Positions 10,683 to 64,000 are shown, numbered from the stretch's first letter. The stretch: DNA of 64,000 nt from Deltaproteobacteria bacterium HGW-Deltaproteobacteria-4 (GCA_002841765.1 PHAV01000002.1:73604-137603), one strand, 5' to 3'. Notes: a model not told the origin generated them from the sequence alone. Numbers and translations are program-made.

Positions 10683-10689
10683 CAGTGCA

Positions 10690-10768
10690 GGGGCAATTCA
10701 TGAATTGCCCCAACGATTTCAAATACAAAAAGGGTTGCCCGCGTTTTGCGGTGCAACCCTTTTTTCGG
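10690..10768. terminator. Two hairpins between convergent genes (bidirectional terminator)
   Basis: GGGGCAATTCATGAATTGCCCC, then AAAAAGGGTTGC...GCAACCCTTTTTT. Confidence 0.65.
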
Positions 10769-10780
10769 TTTTTGCTGCGG

Positions 10781-11128: not shown

Positions 11129-11158
11129 GCTTTTCCTCCGTTAGTTGTCATTATTTCA

Positions 11159-12961: not shown

Positions 12962-13191
12962 GAATGGATCTCCAGGCGCGGACTGGTTTGATGGTGTGCC
13001 CGCGGCAGGGAGAGGATGGCAAGAGTGCCCTGGGAAGTCAACGGAAAAGGATGAAATGTTTATTCTCCCGAGTCACTTCGCCGCAATAATGGCAGGCCTT
13101 CAAAATGGTCAGCATTTCCACGGTGTCGTTCTTCAAGTTGCAGACAATGCGGTTTCCCCGTTATACAAACTCCCCGAGTTACCGGTTCTCT

Positions 13192-13935: not shown

Positions 13936-13969
13936 ACCGGCTCCTTGGTTAGTCTCTCAGAGTGAACGT

Positions 13970-37995: not shown

Positions 37996-38352
37996 GGGGG
38001 CGCCAAGGTTTCGACGGGGATAGGAAGCGAAGGTTGCATGCCGGGGATGCCAGTTGGCCTCGTTAAAAAATCTGGCAACACATACAAACGCCGATACTGA
38101 CGTTCGTTACGCACTAGCGGCTTAATTGCCGCTACGTCTCTTCGCTTCATCGCCCATGTGGGGTTTAGAGACGTCATTAATGTGGGATAGTTCTCAAGTT
38201 CGCCTGCGGCGCGAGAGCGAAATCTAGCAGGATCCCCCAAAGAAAATCCTGTCCGTGGGAGTTTCGAGGGTAAACTAAAATACGGACTACGCATGTAGAA
38301 GCTTTTCGTAGATGATTTTCGGACGCGGGTTCGATTCCCGCCGCCTCCACCA
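37996..38352 (+). ncRNA. ssrA: tmRNA (SsrA)
   Basis: 5' GGGGGCGCCAAGGTTTCGACGGGG and 3' GGACGCGGGTTCGATTCCCGCCGCCTCCACCA. The internal tag frame reads GCC GAT ACT GAC GTT CGT TAC GCA CTA GCG GCT TAA (…DTDVRYALAA stop). Confidence 0.95.
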
Positions 38353-38879: not shown

Positions 38880-39992
38880 TTGGCGGATTTTTATAGGGTA
38901 AGCCGAGTGAATATCAAGATTTCATTACTGAAATTCATTGATCGTGTCGTTGGTGGGGTGGTGCGCTTCTGGCCTGCACCGTCGCGGCGGCCTCACGGTG
39001 CGCTGCAGTCGATTCTTGTTATCCGTCCTGGCGGAATTGGTGATGCAGTTCATCTCCTCCCGTTGCTACAACGTTTGCGGGGATGCTTCCCCACGGCCCG
39101 CATCTTTGTTCTGGGCGAGCGCCGTAACGTCGGTGTTTTCGTCCTTTCGCCGGTCAAAGTGACTGTCTTGTGTTACGATCGGCCCCTTGAATTTCTCCGA
39201 TCTTTGATTAGTCAATATGATGTTGTTATCGATTCAGAACAGTGGCATTGTCTTTCTGCCGTTGTCGCCCGGATGGTGCGGGCTCCGGTCAAGATTGGAT
39301 TTGCCGGCAACGTGCGCCAACGTCTCTTTACGGATCCGCTTCCTTATTCTCAGGAAAAATACGAAGCGGAAATCTTTCTCTCCTTGTTGACACCACTAGG
39401 TATTCCGTATAAATCACTGCCACCTCCACCCTGGCTGCGAATTCCGTACAACATAGCATCGGAGATCACTTCGTTACGGACAAAGGTTGACGGTCGTTAC
39501 CTTGTCCTTTTTCCCGGAGCAAGTATCGCAGCTCGTCGCTGGGGGGCGGAGCGTTTTCGACTTCTGGCGCGCGCCATTTATGAGATTGGCTGGCAGGTGG
39601 TTGTCGTCGGCGGTCGCGACGACTGTTCGACCGCTGACGCGATCTGTCGGGACGGATGGGGGCACGACTTCTCCGGCCAGACCAGTCTTGCCGGAACGGC
39701 AGCATTGATTGCCGGTGCCGATCTTTTGGTCAGCGGAGATTCTGGCCTTTTACACATCGGTGTTGCTTTAGGAATTCCAACGGTTTCATTTTTTGGTCCC
39801 GGGATTGCGGAGAAATGGGCACCACGCGGAGAAGGGCATAGTGTTCTTAATCTGCAGCTCCCTTGCTCTCCCTGTACGCTCTTTGGTACGACCCCTGCAT
39901 GTAAAAATAAGCTGGCGTGTTTGTCGGGGATCAGCGTTGATGCAGTTATTCAGGCAGTGAAAAAACAGTTACTACAGAACGGAATTGATTGA
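38880..39992 (+). CDS. Glycosyltransferase family 9 (heptosyltransferase-like)
   Basis: ILVIRPGGIGDAVHLLP, and a C-terminal SGDSGLLHIGVALGIPTVSFFGP motif typical of GT9. Start uncertain (TTG 38880 or GTG 38907). Confidence 0.75.
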   Translation: MADFYRVSRVNIKISLLKFIDRVVGGVVRFWPAPSRRPHGALQSILVIRPGGIGDAVHLLPLLQRLRGCFPTARIFVLGERRNVGVFVLSPVKVTVLCYDRPLEFLRSLISQYDVVIDSEQWHCLSAVVARMVRAPVKIGFAGNVRQRLFTDPLPYSQEKYEAEIFLSLLTPLGIPYKSLPPPPWLRIPYNIASEITSLRTKVDGRYLVLFPGASIAARRWGAERFRLLARAIYEIGWQVVVVGGRDDCSTADAICRDGWGHDFSGQTSLAGTAALIAGADLLVSGDSGLLHIGVALGIPTVSFFGPGIAEKWAPRGEGHSVLNLQLPCSPCTLFGTTPACKNKLACLSGISVDAVIQAVKKQLLQNGID

Positions 39993-40768
39993 TGTCCTCC
40001 ATTATCGTCTATCTCTTGGTCTTTTCTCTTGGTGCTTGCATCGGTTCTTTTCTCAATGTTTGTATTTACCGGATTCCCGCTGGTCTTTCGATCGTTCATC
40101 CTCCGTCGCGTTGCCCGCAGTGCGGAACACAAATTCGCTGGTGGCAGAATATTCCGATTGTGAGTTGGTTGTTTCTGCGGGGTAAATGTGCAACCTGCAA
40201 AGTGAAAATCAGCACTCGTTATCTGCTGGTCGAGATTTTGACCGGCCTGCTCTTCCTTAAAATTTTCATGATGTTTGCAATCCATCCGGCAACTTTGGTC
40301 TTTTGGGCCTTTGCGGCGGCGTTGGTGATTCTGACCTTTATCGACCTCGATCACCAGATTATTCCTGACGTTATTAGTCTTCCGGGGGTAATTCTTGGCT
40401 TTTCCACAGTTGCTTTGACCCCGTTGACGTGGAGTGATTCCATCCTTGGCATCCTGCTTGGTGGCGGTTCCCTTTGGCTGATCGCGATTATTTACGAGTT
40501 TCTGACCAAGAACGAGGGGATGGGGGGAGGGGATATCAAGTTGCTGGCGATGATCGGCGCTTTTCTCGGCTGGAAGGCCATTTTGCCTGTCATCTTTATC
40601 AGTTCATGCCTTGGAACCCTCGTCGGCGTTCCGCTGATGTTACGTCAAGGTGCGAGTGGCAAACTTGCTATTCCTTTCGGTCCGTTTTTGTCTGCAGCTG
40701 CTCTGATCTGGTTTTTTTATGGAGGATTGTTGTTACGTTGGTATCTCGGATTTTTTCGCTATGGATAA
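39992..40768 (+). CDS. pilD: Prepilin peptidase / N-methyltransferase (A24 family)
   Basis: CPQCGTQIRWWQNIPIVSWLFLRGKCATCK zinc motif, FIDLDHQIIPD, GGGDIKLLAMIG. The ATG overlaps the GT9 stop (TGATG). Confidence 0.9.
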   Translation: MSSIIVYLLVFSLGACIGSFLNVCIYRIPAGLSIVHPPSRCPQCGTQIRWWQNIPIVSWLFLRGKCATCKVKISTRYLLVEILTGLLFLKIFMMFAIHPATLVFWAFAAALVILTFIDLDHQIIPDVISLPGVILGFSTVALTPLTWSDSILGILLGGGSLWLIAIIYEFLTKNEGMGGGDIKLLAMIGAFLGWKAILPVIFISSCLGTLVGVPLMLRQGASGKLAIPFGPFLSAAALIWFFYGGLLLRWYLGFFRYG

Positions 40769-40831
40769 TCGTTGCAGCCTGATGTGGAACCTTTTTAAAG
40801 AGATAAATTATATTCCCTTTAAAAAAATTAC

Positions 40832-40859
40832 TTGACTGTATTATTGAAGGACATATAAT
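40832..40859 (+). promoter_or_regulatory. Sigma70-type promoter
   Basis: TTGACT, 16 nt, then TATAAT, upstream of the HTH gene and pilM. Confidence 0.5.
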
Positions 40860-40904
40860 TAGGCCTAATTTTGCATAATAAGATTTATTATTTCAATATA
40901 TGCG

Positions 40905-41102
40905 GTGGGTTGCGTGAATAATGTAAAGAAATTCAGAGAGTCACTGTTAATGACCAAGGCTGAACTCGCTCGCAAAGCGGGGCTTTCTGCGTTGACCATT
41001 GACAGGATTGAGCGTGGATCGGCCTGTCGAATTTCTACCATGCGCAAGATAATTCTCGCCTTTGGTTTGAAAATTGAAGACAGGAACAAAATTTTTCCGT
41101 AA
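40905..41102 (+). CDS. XRE-family helix-turn-helix protein
   Basis: LLMTKAELARKAGLSALTIDRIERG. Confidence 0.7.
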   Translation: MGCVNNVKKFRESLLMTKAELARKAGLSALTIDRIERGSACRISTMRKIILAFGLKIEDRNKIFP

Positions 41103-41165
41103 TTTTATCGTCTTGTCAGCCTAAATAAATGAGAGCACACATTAAGTTATTGCCGAGGGATCGTT

Positions 41166-42230
41166 ATGTTTTCTGGATCAAAAAAAGATTTAGTCGGTAT
41201 CGATATCGGTTCGCGGGCTGTTAAGGTCGTGCGGTTGCGGGAAGTCAAGGGTCTTTGGCATCTGCAGGCAATTGGTATGGCCAGTCTTCCTCAGGAGGCG
41301 ATTGTCGATAACGCCATTATGGATTCTTCGGCGGTCATTGATGTCGTCAAAAGTCTTCATACCAATTTAAGGATTGGCACAAAGAATGTCGTAACCTCAA
41401 TTTCCGGACATTCGGTCATTATCCGCAAGATTCAAATGCCGATTATGACCGAAGAAGAGTTGGAAAATTCGATTGTATTTGAGGCCGAGCAGTATATCCC
41501 TTTCGATATTACCGAAGTCTTTCTCGATTTTCACATTATCGGTTCGGACGTTAACGACCCGACGATGATGAATGTCTTTCTGGTTGCAGCCAAAAAAGAT
41601 TTTGTCAACGATCATATTGCTATCTTCAGGGAGTGCGGTTTGACTCCCATGGTGATGGATATTGACTCTCTTGCAGTGCAAAATGCTTTTGAGTTGAATT
41701 ATGCGGTTGATGAAAATGTGGTAATCGGACTCGTTAATATGGGCGCCGGTGGGATGAATGTCAGTGTCCTTAAGGACGGCGCCTCAATCTTTACCCGTGA
41801 TATTCAAATCGGTGGAAATATTCTCAACGAAGAGATCCAGAAGCAGTTTGGTCTCGGTAGCGCTGATGCTGAGCGTGCCAAGTTAGGACAGGAAATTCCC
41901 GGGATAGAACAGCAAGCAATCGAGGAAGTTCTTCTCAGCGCCACGGAGATGTTGGCGCAGGAAGTCCAACGCTCACTTGATTTTTTCACAGCCACTGCAG
42001 CGGACGATAAAATTCAACATCTTTATATCACCGGTGGGATCGCCCAGTTACCTCAAATACGCCATGCTCTGGAAAATCGCCTTGGTATCGATGTGGAGAT
42101 TATTGACCCATTCCGGCAAATAGTTGTGAATGAAAAAGACTTTGAAATCGAATATTTAAAATCGATAGGTCCGATGTTTGCCGTCGCTGTCGGATTGGCG
42201 ATGCGTCGCGTAGGGGACAAGAATGATTAA
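41166..42230 (+). CDS. pilM: Type IV pilus assembly protein PilM
   Basis: Actin-like ATPase fold (VGIDIGSRAVKVV), 354 aa, first gene of the pilMNOPQ order. Confidence 0.9.
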   Translation: MFSGSKKDLVGIDIGSRAVKVVRLREVKGLWHLQAIGMASLPQEAIVDNAIMDSSAVIDVVKSLHTNLRIGTKNVVTSISGHSVIIRKIQMPIMTEEELENSIVFEAEQYIPFDITEVFLDFHIIGSDVNDPTMMNVFLVAAKKDFVNDHIAIFRECGLTPMVMDIDSLAVQNAFELNYAVDENVVIGLVNMGAGGMNVSVLKDGASIFTRDIQIGGNILNEEIQKQFGLGSADAERAKLGQEIPGIEQQAIEEVLLSATEMLAQEVQRSLDFFTATAADDKIQHLYITGGIAQLPQIRHALENRLGIDVEIIDPFRQIVVNEKDFEIEYLKSIGPMFAVAVGLAMRRVGDKND

Positions 42231-42828
42231 AATCAATCTCCTCCCGGTCAGGGAATCGCAAAAAAAGGAAAGGCTACGTGAGCAAGTAGTTGTTTTACTC
42301 GCTTGCGCCATTTTTACAGTCAGCGGTTGTGCTGCTGCCTACACAACTATCCTTGCTAAAATCAGTCAGAAGACAGACGTAATCAGTGAACAGACCAAGG
42401 TGATTGAACAGTTAAAAAAACAGATCGGCGAAGTGGAAAAAGTAAAAAAGTTGCAAGCTGAACTTCAGTCCAAGCTCGATATACTGGGGAAACTCAAGGC
42501 AAATAAGACCGGTCCTGCACACATGCTGGATGAATTGAGTATGGCCATTCCGGAAAAATTGTGGATTGATTCTTTTGATAATATTGCTGGTGCCGTCAAT
42601 CTCAGTGGTATGGGTATCAACGAAGAGATTGTAGCGATTTTTTTACAGCAACTGGAAGCCTCGCCTTATTACATGAGAGTTGAGTTGCAGAGTCTTGAAC
42701 AGGCGACGATTGAAGGGAATAAATTTCAGAGATTTAAAGTTGTTGCAAAGGAAGAAGTGCCTCCAATTAAAAACGTGGATAACGATAAAGCGGCCGTGAA
42801 GAAGTCTGAGCCCGCCCAAAAAACGTAA
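42223..42828 (+). CDS. pilN: Type IV pilus assembly protein PilN
   Basis: MIKINLLP N-terminus, a single TM helix and a coiled coil. Confidence 0.85.
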   Translation: MIKINLLPVRESQKKERLREQVVVLLACAIFTVSGCAAAYTTILAKISQKTDVISEQTKVIEQLKKQIGEVEKVKKLQAELQSKLDILGKLKANKTGPAHMLDELSMAIPEKLWIDSFDNIAGAVNLSGMGINEEIVAIFLQQLEASPYYMRVELQSLEQATIEGNKFQRFKVVAKEEVPPIKNVDNDKAAVKKSEPAQKT

Positions 42829-42836
42829 GGGAGCTA

Positions 42837-43442
42837 TTGATGAATCCGCAGGTTGAAAAGTTTATCAAGTTGCCTTTTTATAAGCGCTTTCTTATAGTTT
42901 TTGTCGTATTGCTTAGTATTACCGGCGCTTTTTACTTCTTTGTTTTTGTGCCCAAGATGGATGAGTACAAAGGGCTGGTCAAGAAGAGTGAGACCTTGCA
43001 GGCGGAAATAGTTCAAAAAAAGAGTATTGCCGATAATCTCGTACGTTTTCGCGATGAATACGATAAGATGCAGCAGCGTCTCGATGAGTCCTTGAAAGAA
43101 TTACCTAACGACAAGGAACTTCCCGAGCTATTGACCAGTATTGCTGCAATTGCCAAACAGAATCAACTCGAAGTGAAAAAGTTTCAGCCGGGGGGCGAAG
43201 TTGCTAAGGGTTTTTATGCCGAGGTGCCGGTCACTTTGACTTTAACTGGTCGCTATCTTGATATTGGCAGGTTCTTTTTTGATATCAGCGAAATGCCTCG
43301 TATTGTCACGGTCGGAAATATTAAGATGAAGACGGTCGGTGGGAAAGCGGCCGGGCAGGTGCTGATCTCGGTCGACTGCCAAGCGACAACTTATCGTTTC
43401 TTGAGTGCTGGAGAGAATCCTCCCCCTGCGAAGAAAAAGTAG
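42837..43442 (+). CDS. pilO: Type IV pilus assembly protein PilO
   Basis: Position in the cluster, a TM helix plus coiled coil, and a LPELLTSI motif. Confidence 0.8.
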   Translation: MMNPQVEKFIKLPFYKRFLIVFVVLLSITGAFYFFVFVPKMDEYKGLVKKSETLQAEIVQKKSIADNLVRFRDEYDKMQQRLDESLKELPNDKELPELLTSIAAIAKQNQLEVKKFQPGGEVAKGFYAEVPVTLTLTGRYLDIGRFFFDISEMPRIVTVGNIKMKTVGGKAAGQVLISVDCQATTYRFLSAGENPPPAKKK

Positions 43443-43458
43443 ACAGTCGGAGTTAATC

Positions 43459-44010
43459 ATGATGAAGGCACAACGAAATCTGTCTAAGTGGTTCGTTATC
43501 TCCTGTGGATTGACTGTACTCGTGGCTTGTGGTGAGGAAACACCCGTCACACCGGTGGCCCCTGCCAAACCCCAACCTCGGAAAGTAGAAGCAGCCAAAG
43601 TCGCACCAGGATCGGTAGAGGGGGGTGTCACCGTGATGGATGCCCTTCCCCCCAAGTACACTTTTGTTACAGAGAATCGCCGGGATCCCTTTCAGCCCTT
43701 TATTTTAATTAAGCGGCCTGTTGATGCCGACGCAGATCTTTCGGCACAAACACCGTTACAGCAGTACGAGACGATGCAGTACAAACTCTCTGCTGTCATC
43801 GTTGGTTATGGCCAACCGATGGTCATGGTCATTGCCCCGGATGGCAAGAGTTATGTTGTACGCAAAGGTATGAAAATCGGCAAAAATGGTGGGACAGTTA
43901 TACAGATCAATAAAGAGGGTTTCCTTGTGGAAGAGAAGTATCGTGACTTCACAGATGTAGTTCGAACCAATATTTTAGAGATCAAACTCCCGAAGCGGGA
44001 AGGAGTCTGA
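43459..44010 (+). CDS. pilP: Type IV pilus assembly lipoprotein PilP
   Basis: Lipobox LVAC, RRDPFQPF motif, position in the cluster. Confidence 0.8.
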   Translation: MMKAQRNLSKWFVISCGLTVLVACGEETPVTPVAPAKPQPRKVEAAKVAPGSVEGGVTVMDALPPKYTFVTENRRDPFQPFILIKRPVDADADLSAQTPLQQYETMQYKLSAVIVGYGQPMVMVIAPDGKSYVVRKGMKIGKNGGTVIQINKEGFLVEEKYRDFTDVVRTNILEIKLPKREGV

Positions 44011-44014
44011 ACTA

Positions 44015-46717
44015 ATGCGATGTGACCAGATAAAATCGAATAAACTCGCCTTGCGCACTATTGTTAGTGGAGGAGTTCTAGCTGTTATTTATCTTCTTGT
44101 CGGTATGGTAATGGCGACAACAGTCTTTGCTGCCGATTTTACTAACCGGATTATGGCTATTGAGAAGAAGGGCGGCAGCGGCATACAGATTATAGCGGAA
44201 AAAGAGATCGGGTCGCGCTACACCAGTTATCTTCTGTCGAAGCCGCCGCGGGTAGTCTTTGATTTCCAGGGCGCGGATATTTCCACGCTTCCAGTTATCT
44301 CTAAATTATCCGAACATCCTGTTAGTGAGATTCGGGTTTCCCTTTATGAGTCTGCATCTGTAAAATCCGGTCGAATCGAATTGATCTTGACGGATCGTGT
44401 TCCCTACAAGGTGCAAATAGACGGGAACATTTTAAACGTCGATTTTACTCCTGACGTTTCCGTTCCTGCTACTCCTCCAGTAGTTGCTCCGCCAGTTGCT
44501 ACTGAACCTCCGGTTGAAGTGGTGAAACCGCCGGTGGACCCTGCAACTTTTTCTGCTCCTCTTGAAAAGCTAACTTCTCCTGCTTCCAGTATTTTGGAAG
44601 TAATCGGCCGCAAGAGCGAAATATTTTTGCGTGCGGATGGAGAACTTGATCGTTGCAAGTCCTTCGCGCTGAAGAATCCTTCCCGTTATGTTGTTGACTG
44701 TTTCGGAGTGATCGAAAAAATCGCGGCTAAGGATGTGCCTTTATCCGGACCGATCAAACTTATTCGCATTGGTAACTATCCTGATAAAGTCAGATTTGTC
44801 TTGGAAGGTGACGCAAAGGTTGTTGACAGGTTGGAATCGTTCCCGGTTATTGATGGTTTGTCGATACGTTTCGATGGGAAGGGGAAGATTCCATCGCAGG
44901 AAGTAACTTCTGATGAAGGGAAAGCCCTTGCAGCGGCAGTTCCTGTGCTGCAGACTAATCCTCCGGAAAAAATCGAGAAAGGGCCGTCGGCACCGCTCAC
45001 GGTGGAAAAAGTTGATTTTAAAGTCGAGGATGGTAAGTCTTTGGTCATAGTTGTCCTCTCCGCACCGGGTGAGGTGATGCAACCGATTAAAGACAAGACC
45101 TTGCTTCGTTTCGGTATCAAGGGAGCAACGATTATTCCGTCATTACGCCGAACCATCGATGCTTCTGCTTTCCCGAGTGTGATCCGGCAAATTACGCCGT
45201 ACATAGTGAGCAACCGGGGGAAGTCCGATGTCCGTTTCGCAGTTGAACTGAAAGGCGACACTCCTTACGAGTTGAAGAATGACGGAAAAGTTGTCACATT
45301 GATAGTTGACAATGGTTCCTTTGCAAAGGGATATGGACCGCTGGATGAGACAATTGAGCTTCCCCTCGCTGTCGCTGTTGAGGTACCGCAAAAAGCGACT
45401 GCAGCGCCTTACCGTGCTGGGAAAACCCGTCCTGAAGTAATCACGAATGAAACGCTTAAAGTGCCTGCGGATAAAAAATATACTGGTCAGATAGTCTCTC
45501 TCAACTTTGACAATATAGAAATTCGCAATGTTCTCCTGCTTATTGCTGAAGTCAGTGATATGAATATTATCGCCAATGATGACGTCAAAGGGGTTATTAC
45601 CCTACGCCTCAATAACGTTCCTTGGGATCAAGCCCTTGATGTGATTCTGGAGTCAAAGGGACTGGGGATGGAGAAAGAAGGGAACATACTCCGCATTGCT
45701 CCTAAAGAAGTTATGTTAAAACGTAAGTTAGACAATGCGGAAACAGAGATGAAGCTCAGCGAAACAAGCGTTAAGGAGACTAGAGCGTTTTCCGTAAATT
45801 ATGGACCGGTCGACGATATTGCCCAAAAAATAAAGGATCAAATCAAGGATAATGGTACCGTTTCAGCGGATGTGAGAACCCGGCAAATTTTCGTGACAAC
45901 AACATCGGACAAACTCAAAGAGATTGAAGTGCAGATCATCAGGCGTCTAGACGTTCCCGACCAACAGGTGACTATAGAAGCACGGATTGTTGAAGCTAAC
46001 TCTAATTTCACCCGAGATCTTGGTGTTTCCTGGGGAATTAGCCAGCAGGGAACGGCTAAGGGTCCCTGGGATCTTAGCGGAGCGATGATCACCGGTGGCG
46101 GCAGCTTTACAATTAATCCCGGAACGCAGGCGACGAATACTACCGGACCCGTATTTAATAACTCTGCGGGGATCGGTTCTATGTTCTCATTCGGTCGTAT
46201 CGGAATTGATAGTACCATCCTCGACCTCCGTCTTTCCGCTCTGGAGGCATCAGGCTACGGGAAGATCGTTTCGACGCCGCGGATTACCACCTCGAATGGT
46301 GAGTCGGCTGAAATTAGTCAAGGGACACAAATCCCCTATCAGACTACAAGCGACAAGGGGACCGAGACCAAGTTCATTGATGCGACTCTGGCGCTAAAGG
46401 TTAAACCGGTCATTAACCCGGATAACTCGATGATTTTGGAAATCGAAGTCTCCAACGATTCAGTCGGTTCGACTGTAGCGGTTGGTGTCGGTTCGGCACC
46501 GTCGATCAATACCAAAAAGGCAAAAACCAAGGTGTTGGTGAAAAATGGCGAGACAACGGTTATAGGTGGAATTTTTATTGAGACCGAGACAGAAAGCGAA
46601 GTGGGAATTCCGCTGCTGCGCAGTATTCCGATCCTTGGCCACCTCTTTAAGTCGACACGAAAAGGCAAGGACAAGACAGAATTGATGATCTTTATTACTC
46701 CAAGGATTGTTGAATAG
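44015..46717 (+). CDS. pilQ: Type IV pilus secretin PilQ with N-terminal AMIN domains
   Basis: C-terminal secretin domain (VKNGETTVIGGIF...IPLLRSIPILGHLF...ELMIFITPRIV), STN/N0 region NFDNIEIRNVLLLIA, 900 aa. Confidence 0.95.
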   Translation: MRCDQIKSNKLALRTIVSGGVLAVIYLLVGMVMATTVFAADFTNRIMAIEKKGGSGIQIIAEKEIGSRYTSYLLSKPPRVVFDFQGADISTLPVISKLSEHPVSEIRVSLYESASVKSGRIELILTDRVPYKVQIDGNILNVDFTPDVSVPATPPVVAPPVATEPPVEVVKPPVDPATFSAPLEKLTSPASSILEVIGRKSEIFLRADGELDRCKSFALKNPSRYVVDCFGVIEKIAAKDVPLSGPIKLIRIGNYPDKVRFVLEGDAKVVDRLESFPVIDGLSIRFDGKGKIPSQEVTSDEGKALAAAVPVLQTNPPEKIEKGPSAPLTVEKVDFKVEDGKSLVIVVLSAPGEVMQPIKDKTLLRFGIKGATIIPSLRRTIDASAFPSVIRQITPYIVSNRGKSDVRFAVELKGDTPYELKNDGKVVTLIVDNGSFAKGYGPLDETIELPLAVAVEVPQKATAAPYRAGKTRPEVITNETLKVPADKKYTGQIVSLNFDNIEIRNVLLLIAEVSDMNIIANDDVKGVITLRLNNVPWDQALDVILESKGLGMEKEGNILRIAPKEVMLKRKLDNAETEMKLSETSVKETRAFSVNYGPVDDIAQKIKDQIKDNGTVSADVRTRQIFVTTTSDKLKEIEVQIIRRLDVPDQQVTIEARIVEANSNFTRDLGVSWGISQQGTAKGPWDLSGAMITGGGSFTINPGTQATNTTGPVFNNSAGIGSMFSFGRIGIDSTILDLRLSALEASGYGKIVSTPRITTSNGESAEISQGTQIPYQTTSDKGTETKFIDATLALKVKPVINPDNSMILEIEVSNDSVGSTVAVGVGSAPSINTKKAKTKVLVKNGETTVIGGIFIETETESEVGIPLLRSIPILGHLFKSTRKGKDKTELMIFITPRIVE

Positions 46718-56097: not shown

Positions 56098-56184
56098 GCC
56101 CGGGTGGTGGAATAGGTAGACACAAGGGACTTAAAATCCCTCGATCGTAAGGTCATACCGGTTCGATTCCGGTCCCGGGCACCA
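56098..56184 (+). tRNA. tRNA-Leu (anticodon UAA), class II with a long variable arm, CCA encoded
   Basis: GCCCGGGTGGTGGAATAGGTAGACAC, then AGGGA-CTTAAAA-TCCCT, then variable arm CGATCGTAAGGTCATAC, then CGGTTCGATTCCGGTCCCGGGCACCA. Confidence 0.9.
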
Positions 56185-58073: not shown

Positions 58074-58140
58074 TTCAATTCTCGTTTCGGGCACCACAGT
58101 AAAATTAGGGACTTGGCTTTTTAAGCTAAGTCCTTTTTTT
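58074..58140 (+). repeat. Degenerate copy of the tRNA-Leu 3' end plus its downstream terminator
   Basis: TTCAATTCTCGTTTCGGGCACCA matches tRNA TTCGATTCCGGTCCCGGGCACCA at 18/23 positions. The following sequence AAATTAGGGACTTGGC...GTCCTTTTTTT parallels 56185-56230. Confidence 0.75.
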
Positions 58141-58483
58141 GTGTACGTCCGTTAGGGCGCATAGGTCGCAAGTGCCAATGATTTAAGAGGGATATTTGCA
58201 AAATATAATTTTATCGACCAGTTGCTTCAAAATAATAAGCTGTTAGAATTTGATTATTAAGTGAAATTTTATTCCGCTTAGGTAGAATGACTCAGTAGAA
58301 AATGCTAACTAATTTATAATGTTGTGTATTTCTTTGTCGAGTTAGCCCGTGTTCTTCTTTCTGGTGGCTGAATGAGACAGGATTTATCGGGTATTTGAGG
58401 GAGTTTTTTGGTGAGAATGGATGGTCATAAGCACAAAACGCTTTGTGACCGAAAGGAGATTTACGCATGACAAAGGAGGCGAC

Positions 58484-59692
58484 ATGAAAAGATGGCAATC
58501 CCTGTTGGCGGGTTTTGCCGTGTGTCTGCTTGGCATCAGTCTAGCCGAGAGCGCTCAGGCGTTGTCGATTTCGGGACGATCAAGTTCCGAAATCGAATGG
58601 TTTGACAATGCTGATGGAGACACGGCAGTTCCCGCCTACGAGTACCTGCTGCTCAATGTCAAGGATATCGATGGCGCCGGCCTTAACTTCCGTGGTTACG
58701 GTCGCATCGCCGATGATCTGGCCAATGAGGTCAATGTTGACAGTCGGCTCTACTACGCTTATCTGGAAAAGCGTGAACTGCTACCTAACTTCGATATCAA
58801 GCTTGGTCGCCAGTTTATCTCTACGGCGGGCGGGGCTTCGTTAATGGACGGGCTCTATCTGAAAGCCCGGGATCTGGGACCCTTCAGCTTGACCGTCTTT
58901 GGCGGCGGCGATGTTTCCTACTACGCCGGCTACAACGCCAAGGATTTGATCGATGGTGTCGAACTCTCCGGGAAGTTCGATGCTCTTCAGCTAGGGATCT
59001 CCTACATTCAGCGCTGGGAAGAGAGCGAACTCGCCAACGAATTGATCGGCTTCAATGCCGATTATGAGTACCGAAAAATGTTCAGCCTCTTCGGTGAGGG
59101 CCAGTTCAACTACCTCTCGAATAGCATCTCCTATTTCAATGGCGGCTTTGTTTACCACCGTGACCCAAACTGGTCGCTGCGCGGCGAATACCTCTATTCG
59201 CTCCCGGTCTTCTCCTCAACATCGATCTATTCGGTCTTTGCCGTGGATGAATATCAGGAGGTCGCAACCGAACTCAGCTTCCGCCACGGTCAGGGCGTCC
59301 GGTCATTTGTCAAATACACCCGGGAAATTTATCAGGACTTTGATGACGCCAATGTCCTTGAAGGCGGGGTCGAGAAGATCCGCACCGATCGTTTGTCCTA
59401 CTACCTTGCCGGCGTGCTGCGCGAAGGGAACGATGGGCAGGATCTGCGAGGAATTCGGGCGCATGGTTCCTGGCTCTTCAATCGTTATTTCCGGGCCGGT
59501 ATCGGCGCTGATCTTGATGTGCTTGAACGGCGCATTGAAGAGACCGATGAAACAAGCAGCTCGCGGGTGTGGGTCGATGCGACCGCCACAATCAGTAAAA
59601 AAATCAACGTCGAGGCCAAAGTCGAACGGGCGGAAAGCGACCTGTGGGACGAGTATTACCGGGGTCGCGTTCGTCTGAACATTCTCTTCTGA
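58484..59692 (+). CDS. Outer-membrane beta-barrel (porin-like) protein of a porin-cytochrome cluster
   Basis: Signal peptide MKRWQSLLAGFAVCLLGISLAESAQA, alternating beta-strand pattern rich in Y/G/D/R, and a C-terminal ...VRLNILF ending in Phe. Confidence 0.7.
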   Translation: MKRWQSLLAGFAVCLLGISLAESAQALSISGRSSSEIEWFDNADGDTAVPAYEYLLLNVKDIDGAGLNFRGYGRIADDLANEVNVDSRLYYAYLEKRELLPNFDIKLGRQFISTAGGASLMDGLYLKARDLGPFSLTVFGGGDVSYYAGYNAKDLIDGVELSGKFDALQLGISYIQRWEESELANELIGFNADYEYRKMFSLFGEGQFNYLSNSISYFNGGFVYHRDPNWSLRGEYLYSLPVFSSTSIYSVFAVDEYQEVATELSFRHGQGVRSFVKYTREIYQDFDDANVLEGGVEKIRTDRLSYYLAGVLREGNDGQDLRGIRAHGSWLFNRYFRAGIGADLDVLERRIEETDETSSSRVWVDATATISKKINVEAKVERAESDLWDEYYRGRVRLNILF

Positions 59693-59705
59693 AAGGAGTG
59701 CCGAT

Positions 59706-60521
59706 ATGATTCGTATACTGCAACTGTTCACCGTCGGCCTGCTCCTCGGGGCATCGACACTGTGGGCCACCGATTTTAACCACGCCGGCCATCAACTCAT
59801 GGCTGGAGATCTCTCCTGTGTCGCCTGTCATGCGGAGGATAATCGTGATATTCGCCCCGATAACAAGGTTTGTCTTGAGTGCCACGATGAGGCCTTTGTC
59901 GATAATCTCAAATTGCCAGGATTAGTCACCCACGACGTAACCTGGGCGCTGACTCACCGTGGCGCAGCACTCGCCAAGACCTATGATTGCTCTGCCTGTC
60001 ACGAGCAGGATTATTGTCTCGACTGCCACAAAGCCGGGCGGGCCGATGAAATGGGCAAGCTCGGTAACACCATGACCAACGTTCACCGCTCCGAGTTTAC
60101 CGTCACCCACCCGATCGCGGCGCGCACCAACCCGCAACTCTGTAACAAATGCCATGAGAGCAAGTTCTGTGTTGAGTGTCACGATGATTTCAATCCTGCC
60201 GATTTGGCCCTTGACTCCCATCGCAAAGGCTTTACCAACGGCACCCTCGGTGGGCAACATGCTTTTTACAGCGATCAACAATGCCAGGGCTGTCACACTA
60301 ACTCAGTGCTGCCGAGCCACCAATGGTCGAATAGTCATGCCCGCGAAGCGCGAAAAAACCTGGCCACCTGTCAAGCTTGCCATCCTGATGGTGATGTCTG
60401 TCTTAAATGCCACAGTGCCAAGAGCGGTTTGATGGCCAACCCTCATCCTCGTGACTGGGATGATGTTAAAAATCGTCTTAAGCGGGCCAGTGACGCTAAA
60501 ACTTGTCGTAAATGCCACTAA
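59706..60521 (+). CDS. Periplasmic decahaem c-type cytochrome
   Basis: Signal peptide plus 10 CXXCH motifs counted in 271 aa (CVACH, CLECH, CSACH, CLDCH, CNKCH, CVECH, CQGCH, CQACH, CLKCH, CRKCH). Confidence 0.9.
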   Translation: MIRILQLFTVGLLLGASTLWATDFNHAGHQLMAGDLSCVACHAEDNRDIRPDNKVCLECHDEAFVDNLKLPGLVTHDVTWALTHRGAALAKTYDCSACHEQDYCLDCHKAGRADEMGKLGNTMTNVHRSEFTVTHPIAARTNPQLCNKCHESKFCVECHDDFNPADLALDSHRKGFTNGTLGGQHAFYSDQQCQGCHTNSVLPSHQWSNSHAREARKNLATCQACHPDGDVCLKCHSAKSGLMANPHPRDWDDVKNRLKRASDAKTCRKCH

Positions 60522-60544
60522 ACGCTCTGAATAAGGAGGAAAAA

Positions 60545-62746
60545 ATGCGCAAAAATAAGTATCTAGCAATTGTCGTTGTTTCGCTCTTCTTGTCGACTCT
60601 TTGGGGTTGCGGAAGCAACTTGGATTCGGGCGGCGATCAAACCGGACCGGACAGTACTTTGGCAGATGCCCAGCCGTTAGGAATAAATAATTGCCTGACC
60701 TGTCATCAGGCTGAGACTGGCGTTGCAAAAACCTGGTTGGCTGGCGTTCATGGCAACCCGGCGGTCAGTGAACCAAACAACGGATTGGTAGACCCCGCAT
60801 GCCTGACCTGCCATGACCAGTTGGGCGACGGACAAAAACTTTCCACAGCAACGAACGGAATTGTGGCCAACCGACCGGTAGTAAGCTGCGAATCGTGCCA
60901 CGGTGGAGGGCAGTATCACAACGGGATTGCTGCAGGTATCCCTTTTGCCTCCCCCGATTCCAACCGCTGCGGGCAGTGCCACAACGCCACCTTCCCGCAC
61001 GGGTCTTCCCCTGAAGGAAAAGGAATCGTCGAAGCATTTCAGGCATCGCCGCATTCTCGATCTCTCAATGCAAGTGTGTTTGTAGCGGGAACTACCAATG
61101 TGCGTGCCCGTTGCTCTAAGTGCCATAGCGACGAAGGGGCGAAGCAGTATCTGAACGTTGATGGCGACTACGCGTACCTCAGCGCCAACTTGCCGAATAC
61201 CTTGGCGCCAGTAAGCGATGCAAACAACATTGACTGCCGCACCTGTCACTCTCCACACCAGGAAGATCAATTGCTTGAGGCGGAGTCGACAGGCCGCAGT
61301 TCAGAGTTCAACACTTGCACCAACTGTCATCAACTGTTGCAAGCGAGCAGTAGTGCAAAGATCATTGCTTATCATGATCCGGCAGCCAATCAGTACGGTG
61401 CTGTGAATGAGATCATTACCGACACCCATTTTGCTACTCCCGGAAATTTCGTCAACGGTACTAATAACGCCGATATTTCCGGGTATGCTTTCGATTTCTC
61501 CAGCAATCGCGCTTGTCGCGACTGTCACAACCCGCATAACGCCGACAACACCATCAATAAGCAGTGGGCCGCCTCCGGACACGCAGATACAACGGCGGCC
61601 GGTGCATGGGCTCATTACAACTGGACCGAAGTTCCCGGCGCCGTTCGTAACGACTTCACCGTCGTCAGCGCATTTGGTGACCGTCGCCCCTGCCAGCGTT
61701 GTCATACCACTACCGGTGTCATTGCCTATTTGACCGCCAATACCGATGCCGATCCCGCTGAATATGCGGCGCCACTGGCGTACAACTCCAATTTCAAGCC
61801 GGAGATGCTCAAGTGCAACGGTTGCCATACCGATAGCGTCGGTACCCTGCGTACCACAGGCCGAATTACTGCTCCCTATACCAATGCACCTGACCAATAC
61901 CCCGCTGCTGCCGGGTCTAATCTCTGTTTGGCTTGTCACACCGGAGTTGAGAGTGGCGAATCAATCAAAAATTCCAGCGCTAATTTCGCCGCCACCGGTT
62001 TCATAAACTCGCATTACCTTACCGCTGGAGGCACGGTTTTCGGGAAGTCTGGCTACACCTTTGGAGATCGTAATTATGCGATCCCCGCTGGCGACCGCCA
62101 CGACAAAATCGGCATGGGCATTGCCACCGGTGACGCCAATTTTGATGCCGTGCGCGGCAACTACACCGAGGGGCCCTGCGTCACTTGTCACTTCGACAAC
62201 AATGATGGCTCGCACACACTCAGTCCCTTGACTGAGTACTCCCCCGGCGATGTCTCTCTGAATCCGGTTTGTGTCGTTTGTCACTCTTCCCGCGGCGCCG
62301 GTACCAATGCCGAGACCACATGGCTTGGCACGGATGAGATTGCAGCGACCCTGCAGGGGTCGACCCACAAGGCACGTTATCAGGCGGCTCTTGAGGCGCT
62401 GAAAGTGCAATTGGCCAACAATGGCTACGCATTCACCACTGGCTACCCCTATTTCGCCAATACGAACTGGACCGTGGGTATCTCTAGCGACGGCAAAGCC
62501 AATATGGGCGCCGCCTTCAATTACAATCTGCTGATTCATGATCCAGGTGGTGTGGCCCATAACCGTCGCTACACTCGGCGGCTGATTTACGATGCTATCG
62601 ACCATCTGGATGACGGCATACTTAACTATTCGGTCTTTTCCACCCTCAATGCCCTCGATGTTTCCGCTGTTTATAAGTCCAGTGCCATCGCTTACCTGAT
62701 TAATAATGGGGCGGTCAATGGAGGGACTGCGGCCGAGCGTTTTTGA
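60545..62746 (+). CDS. Multihaem (13 CXXCH) lipoprotein c-type cytochrome
   Basis: Lipobox LSTLWGC. 13 CXXCH motifs counted. AGGAGG RBS ahead of the ATG at 60545. Confidence 0.9.
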   Translation: MRKNKYLAIVVVSLFLSTLWGCGSNLDSGGDQTGPDSTLADAQPLGINNCLTCHQAETGVAKTWLAGVHGNPAVSEPNNGLVDPACLTCHDQLGDGQKLSTATNGIVANRPVVSCESCHGGGQYHNGIAAGIPFASPDSNRCGQCHNATFPHGSSPEGKGIVEAFQASPHSRSLNASVFVAGTTNVRARCSKCHSDEGAKQYLNVDGDYAYLSANLPNTLAPVSDANNIDCRTCHSPHQEDQLLEAESTGRSSEFNTCTNCHQLLQASSSAKIIAYHDPAANQYGAVNEIITDTHFATPGNFVNGTNNADISGYAFDFSSNRACRDCHNPHNADNTINKQWAASGHADTTAAGAWAHYNWTEVPGAVRNDFTVVSAFGDRRPCQRCHTTTGVIAYLTANTDADPAEYAAPLAYNSNFKPEMLKCNGCHTDSVGTLRTTGRITAPYTNAPDQYPAAAGSNLCLACHTGVESGESIKNSSANFAATGFINSHYLTAGGTVFGKSGYTFGDRNYAIPAGDRHDKIGMGIATGDANFDAVRGNYTEGPCVTCHFDNNDGSHTLSPLTEYSPGDVSLNPVCVVCHSSRGAGTNAETTWLGTDEIAATLQGSTHKARYQAALEALKVQLANNGYAFTTGYPYFANTNWTVGISSDGKANMGAAFNYNLLIHDPGGVAHNRRYTRRLIYDAIDHLDDGILNYSVFSTLNALDVSAVYKSSAIAYLINNGAVNGGTAAERF

Positions 62747-62900
62747 CAATTGGTTCAGTATTAGTAACGACTGCAAGATTAAGTCAGTTAACCCTTTAAA
62801 ATGACGGAAAGTACAGGAACGTAGTGGCCGCTAATGGGGGTTGGGTAGACCATGGCAGCCACCTTTTTAGATCCCTTAACAGGGAAAGGAGAATAAGGAC

Positions 62901-64000
62901 ATGAAAACTGATTTGTGGAAAAATGGGAACGGGAAGAAATTCTTACTAGTTGCGTTATTGGCTCTGGCGGTTACCTTGGCTGGCTGCGAGGGCGATGACG
63001 GCTCTCAAGGGCCTCAAGGCCCTGCCGGACCTCCGGGGGGGGCAGTTGTTGATGCGTCAACCACTTCTGCCGCCACTCTGGCAGAGATTGATGTGCAGTC
63101 CGAAATTACCAGTGTGACCATTGCCAGTCCTCCCGTTGTTAACTTTACCTTGAAAGACAGCAACGGAATCGGCATTACCGGGTTGGCCGCTCTAAAAGAA
63201 AATGATGCCCGCTTTATCCGTTTTACTTTAGTTAAACTGGTCCCTGCCGCAGCTAACAGTGGCAACACAAGTTCTTGGGTTAGTTATATCCGGGATAGCG
63301 ATGGTCTGCCTACTTACGACAACGCCGGTACTCTGGTCGATCATGGCGACGGCAGCTATACCTACACCTTTGCCACTGATGTGGCAAAGGTTGCAGGCGT
63401 TACCTATCAGCCGACCTTGACCCATCGCCTCGGTGGACAGATTGGTAGCAGTTCTGTGGCCCTGGAAGCGCAAAACTTTGCCTATGATTTTGTCCCGGCC
63501 GGGGGCGCCGTGACCGCCATGCGTAACATCGCGACCATGAGTTCCTGTAACGAATGCCATGGTAATCTGGTCTTTCATGGCCGCCGCTTTGAAGTTGAAT
63601 ACTGTGTGACCTGCCACAACCCTGACCTAGTTGTGGGTCCTGATTCTTTTGATATGTCGACAATGGTCCACAAAATCCACTCGGCAAACTCGACCTATGT
63701 CGACGGCGATTTTGCTGAAGTGACCTACCCCCAGGAGAAAAACTGTCTCAAGTGCCATAACGGGGCGGACAGTGCGACACCGCAGGGGAATAACTGGCAG
63801 ACCAAGCCGATCATGGCCGCCTGCGGTGGTTGCCACACGGTCGACTTCGCTACCCATCAGGGCGGACAGACCGATAACAGCGCCTGTGCCGGCTGTCATT
63901 CTCCCACTGCGATTGAAGGCTATCACCTGTCGGACAATGCTACCGAAAACAATCCGAATGTTCCGGCTGGAGCGGCCAACCTCACTTATGAAATCAAAGA
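62901..64000 (+). CDS. OmcA/MtrC-family multihaem lipoprotein cytochrome, N-terminal 366 aa (3' end beyond the window); absent from the ORF track
   Basis: My own translation is MKTDLWKNGNGKKFLLVALLALAVTLAGCEGDDGSQGPQGPAGPPGG... with no stop up to nt 64000. RBS is AAGGAGAA. Five CXXCH motifs so far, including SCNECHGNLVFHGRRFEVEYCVTCHNP, which matches the remembered OmcA/MtrC signature. Confidence 0.85.
   Translation, partial: MKTDLWKNGNGKKFLLVALLALAVTLAGCEGDDGSQGPQGPAGPPGGAVVDASTTSAATLAEIDVQSEITSVTIASPPVVNFTLKDSNGIGITGLAALKENDARFIRFTLVKLVPAAANSGNTSSWVSYIRDSDGLPTYDNAGTLVDHGDGSYTYTFATDVAKVAGVTYQPTLTHRLGGQIGSSSVALEAQNFAYDFVPAGGAVTAMRNIATMSSCNECHGNLVFHGRRFEVEYCVTCHNPDLVVGPDSFDMSTMVHKIHSANSTYVDGDFAEVTYPQEKNCLKCHNGADSATPQGNNWQTKPIMAACGGCHTVDFATHQGGQTDNSACAGCHSPTAIEGYHLSDNATENNPNVPAGAANLTYEIK

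Follow-up and report, generated by a model that had tools for sequence, protein, structure and literature searches.

Gene Content and Boundaries of the Cluster

The end of the window (the whole 64,000-nucleotide stretch of DNA that we analyzed) carries a four-gene cluster, encoded on the + strand of an uncultured Desulfuromonadales bacterium. The whole stretch is identical to the NCBI contig JAEMOH010000029.1 (MAG GCA_017973775.1), whose locus numbering (L001) is converted to window coordinates by adding 50544. The genes and control elements are as follows:

58107..58135 (L001 7563-7591), + strand: intrinsic terminator closing the beta-CASP/MBL hydrolase gene that lies upstream (13-bp stem, then a T-run)
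58261..58288, + strand: weak sigma-70-like promoter candidate (GTGAAA-16-TAGAAT, 9/12 consensus matches)
58484..59692, + strand: gene 1, porin-like outer-membrane beta-barrel protein, 402 aa (Sec signal, C-terminal Phe, barrel in the AF2 model)
59706..60521, + strand: gene 2, periplasmic decahaem c-type cytochrome, 271 aa (10 CXXCH, Sec signal)
60545..62746, + strand: gene 3, outer-surface lipoprotein cytochrome, 733 aa (LWGC lipobox, 13 CXXCH)
62824..62862, + strand: GC-rich hairpin followed by CTTTTT, terminator- or attenuator-like, with its end 38 nt before gene 4 begins
62901..64000 (cut by the window end), + strand: gene 4, OmcA/MtrC-family decahaem lipoprotein (LAGC lipobox, TIGR03507)
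L001 14655-14678 (source contig), + strand: strong intrinsic terminator 3' of gene 4

The tight packing described in the initial annotation is present, with gaps of 13 bp between genes 1 and 2 and 23 bp between genes 2 and 3, followed by 154 bp between genes 3 and 4. Good Shine-Dalgarno sequences are found at all four starts. For gene 3 the start at 60545 has AAGGAGG, and an upstream in-frame ATG at 60512 has no ribosome-binding site. The cytochrome genes of the cluster are the only multi-CXXCH ORFs in the 64-kb window. A random protein of 271 aa would be expected to contain only ~0.001 CXXCH, so their motif density is not due to chance. Terminators flank the cluster on both sides, and with the upstream one (58107..58135) we set the 5' boundary of the transcription unit that holds the conduit genes. 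The promoter between this boundary and gene 1 is a candidate only, because such sites are no commoner than in shuffled sequence.

The hairpin in the 154-bp gap and the sequence downstream of it are kept in the orthologous gap of a related locus (L077) that preserves the four-gene order (identities of 92, 82, 84, and 65%) and the chromosomal neighbors; this conservation does not extend to the distal part of the gap. As the gap as a whole does not fold with unusual stability (z = -0.56), any function of the hairpin is putative. A gap with a terminator-like hairpin allows separate regulation of gene 4, and the hairpin and U-run could make expression of gene 4 lower than, or separate from, that of the trio.

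Porin and Periplasmic Cytochrome

Gene 1 starts with a Sec-type signal (MKRWQSLLAGFAVCLLGISLAESAQA/LS) and ends in RVRLNILF. Its AF2 model, generated with 32 homologues supplied, predicts a barrel of 22 strands (pLDDT 83, pTM 0.72), and Foldseek searches with the model matched outer-membrane barrels exclusively. These results bear out the ~400-aa beta-barrel with a signal peptide and C-terminal Phe proposed in the initial annotation and supply a predicted strand count. Relatives of gene 1 comprised 557 homologues and 725 representative clusters; Pfam, NCBIfam, and PDB sequence searches returned no match. The 26-strand MtrB/PioB barrel (PF11854/TIGR03509) gave no Pfam or NCBIfam match in gene 1 even at E = 10, and MtrB was not found when the gene 1 family profile was searched against the PDB.

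Gene 2 packs its 10 CXXCH motifs into 271 aa behind a signal peptide (MIRILQLFTVGLLLGASTLWA/TD) that has no lipobox, as anticipated for the haem-dense periplasmic cytochrome recognized earlier. Exactly 10 motifs were present in 64/64 full-length homologues, and the family has 10 conserved non-motif His residues, enough for each of the 10 haems to be bis-His ligated; nothing suggested a catalytic site. MtrA/DmsE (TIGR03508) was not matched at E = 10, nor was MtrA (6r2q_A) found at E = 1 with a 36-sequence gene 2 family profile searched against the PDB. Because neither the HMMs nor the PDB profiles gave an MtrA or MtrB signal, the core formed by the two genes is not Mtr-type.

Predicted Outer-Surface Cytochromes

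Gene 3 is the 13-CXXCH lipoprotein that had been noted first, with its LWGC lipobox in place. All 13 haem motifs are conserved and 13 is the commonest count among the gene 3 homologues (652 recovered, one of them named OmcB by its depositor). We saw only 12 conserved distal His for the 13 haems, so one haem site may be unusual. The AF2 model (pLDDT 82, pTM 0.81) has no beta-barrel domains, and the C-terminal domain (about residues 590-720) is haem-free and helical. Its best fold match in the PDB was OcwA of Thermincola potens (6i5b), with a probability of 0.99 but a weak fit (TM only 0.26/0.37, 13% identity). Both are candidates for surface-exposed multihaem terminal reductases and have a haem core like that of NrfA/HAO; OcwA differs from gene 3 in its 9 haems, its Gram-positive host, and its lack of a porin partner. 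NrfA and HAO are also among the remote fold neighbors of the model, and the gene 3 family profile gave a weak, local match (E 2e-9) to hydroxylamine oxidoreductase and cytochrome c554, in their N-terminal haem core.

The further lipoprotein cytochrome with an OmcA/MtrC-like signature, seen earlier after the 154-bp gap, was fully substantiated. Within the window gene 4 has 5 CXXCH before the sequence ends; beyond nt 64000 the source contig completes it as a 756-aa protein, ending at window-equivalent 65171 and followed by the terminator, with 10 CXXCH arranged as 5+5 (residues 216, 235, 282, 308, and 329, then 540, 561, 647, 707, and 739). The LAGC lipobox (residues 26-29) precedes a collagen-like GPQGPAGPPGG linker. 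The complete protein scored 437.9 bits against TIGR03507 (cut-off 209.3), covering profile positions 2-672 of 672, and the in-window fragment alone scored 254 bits. PDB matches were to MtrF (3pmq, E 2.4e-47) and MtrC (E 1e-29), and Pfam placed PF22113 twice and PF22112 and PF22111 in the N-terminal domain. Sequence profiles thus recover the OmcA/MtrC four-domain layout, in which barrel domains I and III alternate with pentahaem domains II and IV. Judged by its sequence, gene 4 is a genuine decahaem cytochrome of the OmcA/MtrC family. No cysteine lies between residues 333 and 540; lacking any in domain III, gene 4 therefore has no CX8C disulfide and falls outside the Shewanella flavin-gating subtype. 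In domain III, a CX8C disulfide is conserved within the Shewanella MtrC/OmcA clade but is not among the features of the HMM, and its lack does not exclude gene 4 from the OmcA/MtrC family.

Conserved Core and Variable Outer Module

The barrel and decahaem are kept as a pair, without exception, in 64 related loci, and the decahaem gene adjoins and follows the porin gene in every locus having downstream sequence. Most carriers of this core are Desulfuromonadales, the others being Desulfurivibrio and one Deferribacter; no Geobacter locus was among the 74 recovered with porin family patterns. Pelovirga terrestris, Desulfuromusa kysingii, and Desulfuromonas versatilis are among the organisms in which the cluster occurs. 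For the third gene, identity falls to 25-38% in most loci, and even L002, whose porin is 94% identical, reaches only 44%.

TIGR03507-family genes adjoin the core in 10 of the 75 porin-anchored loci, where 0.14-0.7 would be expected (Poisson P < 4e-9, a value that overstates independence because the loci are phylogenetically related). The MtrC-family gene occurs around the core in at least four arrangements. It follows the 13-haem gene in the window and in L019, L040, L077, and L078, the last with three tandem copies; it lies immediately upstream of the porin in L025 and L029; and in L047 and L043 it comes directly after the decahaem gene, replacing the 13-haem gene, with the same LWGC lipobox in the L047 protein. 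A second small porin and pentahaem module also flanks the MtrC gene in L019, L025, and L029, so the partner of MtrC is ambiguous in these three loci. Because an MtrC-family gene is missing beside the core in ~80% of the related loci, and orphans occur (L076, from Nitrospirae, has the gene alone), the partnership of MtrC with the core is facultative. We propose that the barrel and decahaem form a conserved, co-inherited core on which the extracellular cytochromes are interchangeable modules. The variability of the outer cytochrome matches published observations (Shi 2014, PMC4245776; Otero 2018, PMC6148476), the latter having described the swapping of outer lipoproteins on conserved conduit cores.

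Relationship to Known Electron Conduits

The porin, periplasmic multihaem, and lipoprotein multihaem genes follow one another in the order of porin-cytochrome (Pcc) clusters, as had been recognized. The barrel, with 22 predicted strands, lies in the 18-22 strand range of Pcc barrels, which are smaller than MtrB; the adjoining periplasmic multihaem cytochrome (5-14 haems in Pcc clusters) is co-inherited with the porin; and the adjoining lipoprotein multihaem cytochrome, gene 3, is poorly conserved between clusters. Within the Pcc family, which was defined by BLAST matches of E < 0.01 to OmbB/OmaB/OmcB (Liu 2014 / Shi 2014), the core probably corresponds to Group II, the group nearest to OmbB/OmaB (45-58% similarity; Shi 2014, PMC4245776), a match to published locus tags that we draw from taxonomy and architecture (gene order and haem count). 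Group II clusters include DaAHT2_2270-2271 of Desulfurivibrio alkaliphilus, Dace_0362-0363 of Desulfuromonas acetoxidans, and Selin_2480-2482 (Shi 2014, PMC4245776). The gc6 cluster of D. alkaliphilus (DA_2299-2301), which is counted with this group and to which the core probably corresponds as well, encodes a porin, an OmaC-like cytochrome with 10 haems, and an OmcC-like cytochrome with 8 (Nature 2025, PMC12545173 supplement). Shared with Group II are the gene order from porin to periplasmic to outer cytochrome, the Desulfuromonas and Desulfurivibrio taxa, the barrel size, the 10-haem periplasmic part, and the co-inheritance of porin and periplasmic cytochrome next to a variable outer one. 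The outer cytochrome differs, with 13 haems and 733 aa here and 8 haems and ~350-370 aa in Desulfurivibrio, and an MtrC-family gene is appended here whereas the OmcA-like DA_409 of D. alkaliphilus lies far from its Pcc cluster.

The only biochemically characterized Pcc complex, OmbB-OmaB-OmcB (and OmbC-OmaC-OmcC) of Geobacter sulfurreducens, has the same three-part architecture and gene order; its probable homology to our cluster is taken from the literature. The outer lipoproteins are similar in size (~740 aa and 12 haems in OmcB, 733 aa and 13 haems in gene 3). The periplasmic cytochrome has 10 haems here and 8 in G. sulfurreducens, and our cluster has an MtrC-family gene and no OrfR/OrfS regulator. 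The initial description of the trio as Geobacter-type was right about the Pcc gene order but imprecise, since Geobacter is absent from the recovered loci and the core probably corresponds to Group II. Nor are the 10/13 haem counts a deviation, as had been supposed: because the core matches this non-Geobacter Pcc group, they are typical for the group.

The Shewanella MtrCAB and MtrDEF-OmcA systems (PDB 6r2q, 3pmq) follow the same logic of a barrel with a decahaem inside and a lipoprotein decahaem outside. Gene 4 shares with MtrC, MtrF, and OmcA the 5+5 haems, beta-barrel domains I and III, and the lipoprotein anchor, and, like Shewanella omcA, it is an accessory paralogue beside the core cluster. 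However, our barrel, with 402 aa and 22 predicted strands, contrasts with the ~700 aa and 26 strands of the Shewanella Mtr system; an extra 13-haem lipoprotein stands between the core and the MtrC-type protein; and gene 4, unlike MtrC and OmcA, has the collagen-like Gly-Pro linker after its lipid anchor and no CX8C. MtrC-family genes in Desulfobacterota have been described by Shaw et al. 2025 and Soares et al. 2024, and our locus has in common with that lineage OmcA/MtrC-family decahaem lipoproteins in Desulfuromonadia at variable genomic positions. Those studies found MtrC paired with MtrAB-type genes or with no porin linkage, and stated that the partner was unknown; here and in nine other loci, in contrast, the MtrC-family gene adjoins a Pcc-type core, sometimes as the sole outer cytochrome. 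We judge the conduit cluster to be genuine, a variation on known systems and not a new kind. Of the earlier proposal of a hybrid or uncharacterized variant, the pairing of both system types is real and recurs, but "uncharacterized" applies only to the exact four-gene arrangement.

Proposed Conduit and Alternative Readings

We read the four genes as a Pcc-type trans-outer-membrane electron conduit with an extra MtrC-family surface cytochrome, to which we assign a probability of roughly 0.7. We infer complex formation, the direction of electron flow, the substrate, and the protein that contacts gene 4 as follows. The 22-strand barrel of gene 1 would sheathe the gene 2 decahaem in the outer membrane. 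The decahaem could draw electrons from the periplasmic cytochrome pool and pass them, at the outer face, to the lipid-anchored 13-haem cytochrome of gene 3. Gene 3 may in turn supply gene 4, in the way that Shewanella MtrC passes electrons to OmcA, or gene 4 may dock on the core as an alternative cap. Insoluble FeIII and MnIV oxides, electrodes, or partner cells would be the final acceptors.

It is rather doubtful, though worth weighing, that the trio is the conduit and gene 4 a surface reductase of the MtrC/OmcA type that works independently or for another conduit, co-located and perhaps co-regulated but without contact. The gap with its conserved hairpin and U-run ahead of gene 4 would suit such independence, as would the many related loci without an adjacent MtrC gene, the orphan in L076, and the unlinked DA_409 of D. 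alkaliphilus. Furthermore, Soares 2024 reports that the reference sequence of its MtrC-like cluster lies outside porin operons, and in Shewanella, too, omcA is accessory (Shi 2014, PMC4245776). Yet MtrC-family genes adjoin the core far more often than expected, an adjacency that arose in several architectures, the MtrC-family gene is the only outer cytochrome after the porin-decahaem pair in L047 and L043, and no other porin module was found in the 22 kb around the window's cluster.

Other alternatives concern the function of the whole cluster. An inward conduit (from FeII, cathodes, or syntrophic partners), or one for non-mineral substrates such as sulfur, polysulfide, or selenium oxyanions, is distinctly unlikely. 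Multihaem conduits are thermodynamically reversible, as established for MtrCAB and PioAB. The core family also occurs in Desulfurivibrio (sulfide oxidation, sulfur disproportionation) and in one Deferribacter, and non-iron substrates were proposed for the Group II clusters of D. indicum and D. alkaliphilus (Shi 2014, PMC4245776). Most carriers, however, are Desulfuromonadales, classical reducers of FeIII, S0, and electrodes; characterized MtrC/OmcA-family proteins are terminal metal-oxide and flavin reductases; and ferrihydrite raises transcription of the D. alkaliphilus gc6 porin and of an OmcA-like decahaem (PMC12545173 supplement). Far less probable still is that there is no conduit, the cytochromes being periplasmic nitrite, hydroxylamine, or sulfite reductase-type enzymes and gene 1 an ordinary diffusion porin. 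The resemblance of gene 3 to HAO, cytochrome c554, and NrfA and its 12 distal His for 13 haems point in that direction, but the HAO/c554 matches are local and weak, no reductase family reaches the cut-off, and the best fold neighbor, OcwA, is a surface terminal reductase of a Gram-positive electrogen. The lipoboxes on genes 3 and 4, the 10 bis-His-type haems of gene 2 with no catalytic-site sign, and the invariable pairing of the barrel with a decahaem, unexpected for a diffusion porin, also argue against it.

Beyond the conduit reading of this cluster, we tentatively suggest that Desulfobacterota MtrC-family cytochromes might be serviced by an unrelated Pcc "socket" of a 22-strand barrel and decahaem rather than by MtrAB. 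Its caps would be interchangeable: 8- to 17-haem OmcB/OcwA-like lipoproteins, MtrC-family decahaems, or both in series. If so, the supposedly independent Mtr and Pcc conduit lineages exchange parts, and the socket would answer the question raised by Shaw et al. 2025 of what the MtrC homologues of Desulfobacterota connect to.

The four-gene cluster and its boundaries

Translation of the cluster region of the window recovered four genes, all in the same direction, each preceded by a Shine-Dalgarno sequence and separated by intergenic gaps of 13, 23 and 154 bp:

58484-59692, gene 1, porin-like barrel: 402 aa, N-terminus MKRWQSLLAGFAVCLLGISLAESAQA/LS, C-terminus ...LNILF
59706-60521, gene 2, periplasmic decahaem cytochrome: 271 aa, 10 CXXCH, Sec-type signal, without lipobox
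60545-62746, gene 3, 13-haem lipoprotein: 733 aa, lipobox LWGC, 13 CXXCH
From 62901 past the window end, gene 4, OmcA/MtrC-family lipoprotein: lipobox LAGC, collagen-like GPQGPAGPPGG, 5 CXXCH within the window

The gap lengths, the ~400-aa first gene, the 10 and 13 CXXCH motifs and the LWGC lipobox of the initial annotation were all borne out by the translation. An exact-protein look-up retrieved contig JAEMOH010000029.1 (MAG GCA_017973775.1), which is identical to the window across a 13,456-base overlap and carries gene 4 in full (756 aa, 10 CXXCH arranged 5+5). A strong intrinsic terminator lies 3' of gene 4, followed by a convergent OmpA-family gene, and the upstream beta-CASP gene is likewise closed by a terminator. 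The terminators on both sides thus delimit a unit of four genes, and neither the window nor JAEMOH010000029.1 has a further porin or cytochrome nearby. Outside the cluster, no ORF of the 64-kb window is multi-CXXCH. The cluster is a real and well-formed outer membrane conduit cluster, whose products would assemble in a complex. A genomic island or horizontal-transfer signature was rejected, because the GC content of the cluster (0.50-0.54) is unremarkable and the chromosomal neighbours are kept in the related locus L077.

GEMM elements occur upstream of Geobacter cytochrome genes. Neither these nor any other riboswitch or known RNA regulator was detected in searches of the cluster and leader, whether at the gathering threshold or at E = 1. 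Within the 154-bp gap, a GC-rich hairpin (GTGGCCGC...GGCAGCCAC) and the CTTTTT on its 3' side (62824-62862) end 38 nt before the gene 4 start codon. The hairpin and the stretch down to the start codon are kept in the orthologous gap of L077, unlike the distal gap sequence. This element may act as a partial terminator or attenuator that reduces or regulates read-through from the first three genes (the trio) into gene 4.

A conserved porin-decahaem core with a variable outer cytochrome

Gene 1 had no sequence match in Pfam, NCBIfam or the PDB, family-profile search included; its homologues number 557 in a 90% clustered collection and 725 representative clusters in an exhaustive library. The AlphaFold2 model (32 homologues; pLDDT 83, pTM 0.72) predicted a signal helix and then 22 beta-strands, and Foldseek retrieved outer-membrane barrels only (e.g., ushers, OprD/Occ, MOMP), in agreement with the beta-barrel initially proposed. 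MtrB was missing from the top 50 Foldseek matches. The Pfam matches of gene 2 were to generic multihaem families only, with no match to DmsE/MtrA at E = 10, and the gene 2 family profile (36 sequences) did not find MtrA in the PDB. In the absence of any MtrB or MtrA signal in the Pfam/NCBIfam (E = 10) and family-profile PDB searches, we rejected an MtrAB-type core. On top of its 10 motif histidines, gene 2 has 10 that are invariant or near-invariant, the number that ten predicted bis-His electron-transfer haems would require.

We scanned one genome per species for the porin family and identified 74 loci. They belonged to Desulfuromonadales (Desulfuromonas, Geopsychrobacteraceae, Pelovirga, Geothermobacter, Desulfuromusa, Trichloromonas), Desulfurivibrio and other Desulfobulbales, and one Deferribacter. 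No Geobacter locus was among the 74, so the label "Geobacter-type" given to the trio is imprecise. In every locus with downstream sequence, a gene 2 homologue (42-82% identity) directly followed the porin gene, and all full-length homologues (64/64; 269-297 aa) carried exactly 10 CXXCH. The usual third gene encodes a 700-800-aa cytochrome with 12-13 haems and just 25-38% identity to gene 3. Hence, the haem counts of 10 and 13, initially regarded as deviant, are the norm. Some loci have an 8-, 10-, 15- or 17-haem protein in the third position, or no gene. This combination of a conserved core (the porin-decahaem pair) and a variable third gene is the pattern described for porin-cytochrome conduit (Pcc) clusters, in which co-evolution extends to the porin and periplasmic cytochrome but not to the outer cytochrome (Shi et al., 2014; PMC4245776), and for Geobacter conduits, in which the surface lipoprotein undergoes non-orthologous replacement (Otero, 2018; PMC6148476). 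In the related locus L002 (MAG Kmv15, 3365-5774), the porin and decahaem are 94% and 80% identical to those of the window, yet the third gene reaches just 44% identity over its N-terminus, which argues for very fast turnover of the outer cytochrome between near relatives.

Gene 3 itself has 652 homologues in several phyla, one of them deposited under the name OmcB, and its 13 haem motifs are all conserved. The AlphaFold2 model (pLDDT 82, pTM 0.81) has a beta-poor haem-packing fold and a helical, haem-free C-terminal domain. Its best PDB neighbour is the Thermincola surface nonahaem OcwA (probability 0.99, with TM just 0.26/0.37), and the family profile weakly matched the HAO/c554 haem core. 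Matches to PF22113 had prompted the consideration of an MtrC-like four-domain protein, which we rejected because the model is without beta-barrel domains. Across 45 homologues, only 12 non-motif histidines are invariant or near-invariant versus 13 haem motifs, so that the distal position of one haem may be taken by a ligand other than His or be left open.

Recurrent linkage of MtrC-family cytochromes to the core

Gene 4 scored 437.9 bits against TIGR03507, the OmcA/MtrC family model (cut-off 209.3), over the whole model. It also matched PF22113 (twice), PF22112 and PF22111 and, in the PDB, MtrF (3pmq, E 2.4e-47) and the MtrC of the 6r2q complex (E 1e-29). Its sequence thus clearly identifies it as a member of the family, as the initial annotation had read from the part within the window. 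With TIGR03507 and an HMM derived from the homologues of gene 4, we searched 75 porin-anchored loci and found an MtrC-family gene adjoining the core in 10 of them.

Arrangement of MtrC-family genes adjoining the porin-decahaem core
Window cluster and L019: after the 13-haem gene
L040: after a 17-haem gene, similar to the window and L019
L063 and L058 (Desulfurivibrio): after a short 8-haem gene; L058 at 192 bits, just below the cut-off
L012: frameshifted
L025 and L029: immediately upstream of the porin
L047: directly after the decahaem, in the outer-cytochrome slot; full decahaem with lipobox LWGC
L043 (Pelovirga terrestris): directly after the decahaem, in the outer-cytochrome slot; 8-haem variant

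Chance would place 0.14-0.7 MtrC-family genes in the 556 kb of flanking DNA (assuming 1-5 copies per 4-Mb genome), giving a Poisson P < 4e-9 that is generous because the loci are related. The varied architectures and the low identities among the core-linked MtrC-family proteins (24-65%) argue that the gene and the core were brought together repeatedly and independently. The linkage is nevertheless facultative, because ~80% of the loci are without a linked MtrC-family gene, a Nitrospirae homologue (L076) is solitary, and the OmcA-like gene of D. alkaliphilus is unlinked to its Pcc cluster (PMC12545173 supplement).

Two more loci came from searches that started on the MtrC side. L077, a syntenic close relative, has the same four genes (92, 82, 84 and 65% identity) and chromosomal neighbours. 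L078 (Logan SRR23882336 contig, 5970-14086) has the trio and then three tandem OmcA/MtrC-family genes (793, 931 and 767 aa), an expansion that recalls the Shewanella paralogues mtrC, omcA and mtrF. Another Pcc-like module, of smaller size, lies on the MtrC gene's far side from the main trio in L019 (15143-16932), L029 (1874-4511, - strand) and L025 (1986-4636, - strand). It pairs a 428-435-aa porin of weak similarity to gene 1 with a 157-166-aa cytochrome (5 CXXCH counted in L019), followed in L025 and L029 by a 268-286-aa ORF. Which module the MtrC gene serves is, thus, ambiguous in these three loci.

The cultured isolate Pelovirga terrestris M08fum carries two copies of the core in one genome (L037 and L043). 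One is capped by a 13-haem lipoprotein and the other by an 8-haem TIGR03507 match (288 bits), which appears to comprise two domain I-II units. This strain offers a natural system in which cap exchange could be examined; Desulfuromusa kysingii and Desulfuromonas versatilis are further cultured carriers of the cluster.

The analysis establishes the anatomy, targeting signals, predicted folds, family membership and synteny of the cluster; complex formation, the direction of electron flow and the substrate we infer. In the best-supported model, a lipid-anchored cytochrome would cap the complex, in the window the 13-haem protein. The MtrC-family decahaem could be a second, peripheral reductase, by analogy with OmcA, or an alternative cap, as suggested by L047 and L043.

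Relationship to known conduits

Extracellular electron transfer powers iron, manganese and sulfur cycling and is the basis of bioelectrochemical devices. To our knowledge, the field regards the Mtr conduits of Shewanella and the Pcc conduits of Geobacter as separate inventions.

In the published definition of Pcc, the porin has 18-22 strands, the periplasmic cytochrome 5-14 haems and the outer cytochrome 1-15; their "Group II", the nearest to OmbB/OmaB, contains the clusters of Desulfurivibrio alkaliphilus, Desulfuromonas acetoxidans and Desulfurispirillum (Shi et al., 2014; PMC4245776). Cluster gc6 of D. alkaliphilus encodes a porin (DA_2299), an "OmaC-like 10x" (DA_2300) and an "OmcC-like 8x" (DA_2301) protein (2025 Nature paper supplement, PMC12545173), an architecture matching the Desulfurivibrio loci L058 and L063. 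With ferrihydrite, the gc6 porin was modestly induced and the OmcA-like decahaem DA_409 strongly (log2FC 5.4; PMC12545173). Clusters of the ombB-omaB-omcB type have also been reported from Desulfuromonas isolates (Guo, 2021). Taxonomy, architecture and this literature suggest that the window cluster belongs to Group II and is homologous to the characterised Geobacter complex.

MtrC-family genes were recently described in >40 Desulfobacterota, where a partnership with MtrAB was assumed and the association, hence the trans-membrane module serving them, was stated as unknown (Shaw, 2025). The locus and its relatives provide a concrete, testable answer: an MtrC-type protein recurs beside a non-Mtr barrel/decahaem core, sometimes replacing the usual outer cytochrome. 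The literature searched yielded no description of this recurrent pairing or of an MtrC-type protein replacing a Pcc outer cytochrome. Each ingredient is already published. Of the reading "hybrid or uncharacterised", the hybrid pairing stands as real and recurrent (10/75 loci) and "uncharacterised" applies to this exact four-gene order only; the pairing is a variant that fits the modularity already known for such conduits. Should the contact prove real, the extracellular cytochrome would be a portable module, useful for engineering conduits of chosen surface specificity, and gene-marker surveys, among them those with MtrCAB rules of the FeGenie type, would overlook such systems or assign them wrongly. 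Otherwise, the locus simply adds a member to a conduit family already published.

Other features of the window

The genes for the prepilin peptidase (pilD) and for type IV pilus assembly (operon pilMNOPQ) occupy 39989-46717, ~12 kb upstream of the conduit and shortly after a tmRNA gene, with a GC content of ~0.45 versus 0.55 elsewhere. We rejected an integrated island as an explanation for the low-GC stretch at ~40-48 kb, as it corresponds to the pilMNOPQ operon. The tmRNA gene (37996-38352; Rfam 210 bits) and a tRNA gene (56098-56181) have no apparent link to the conduit.
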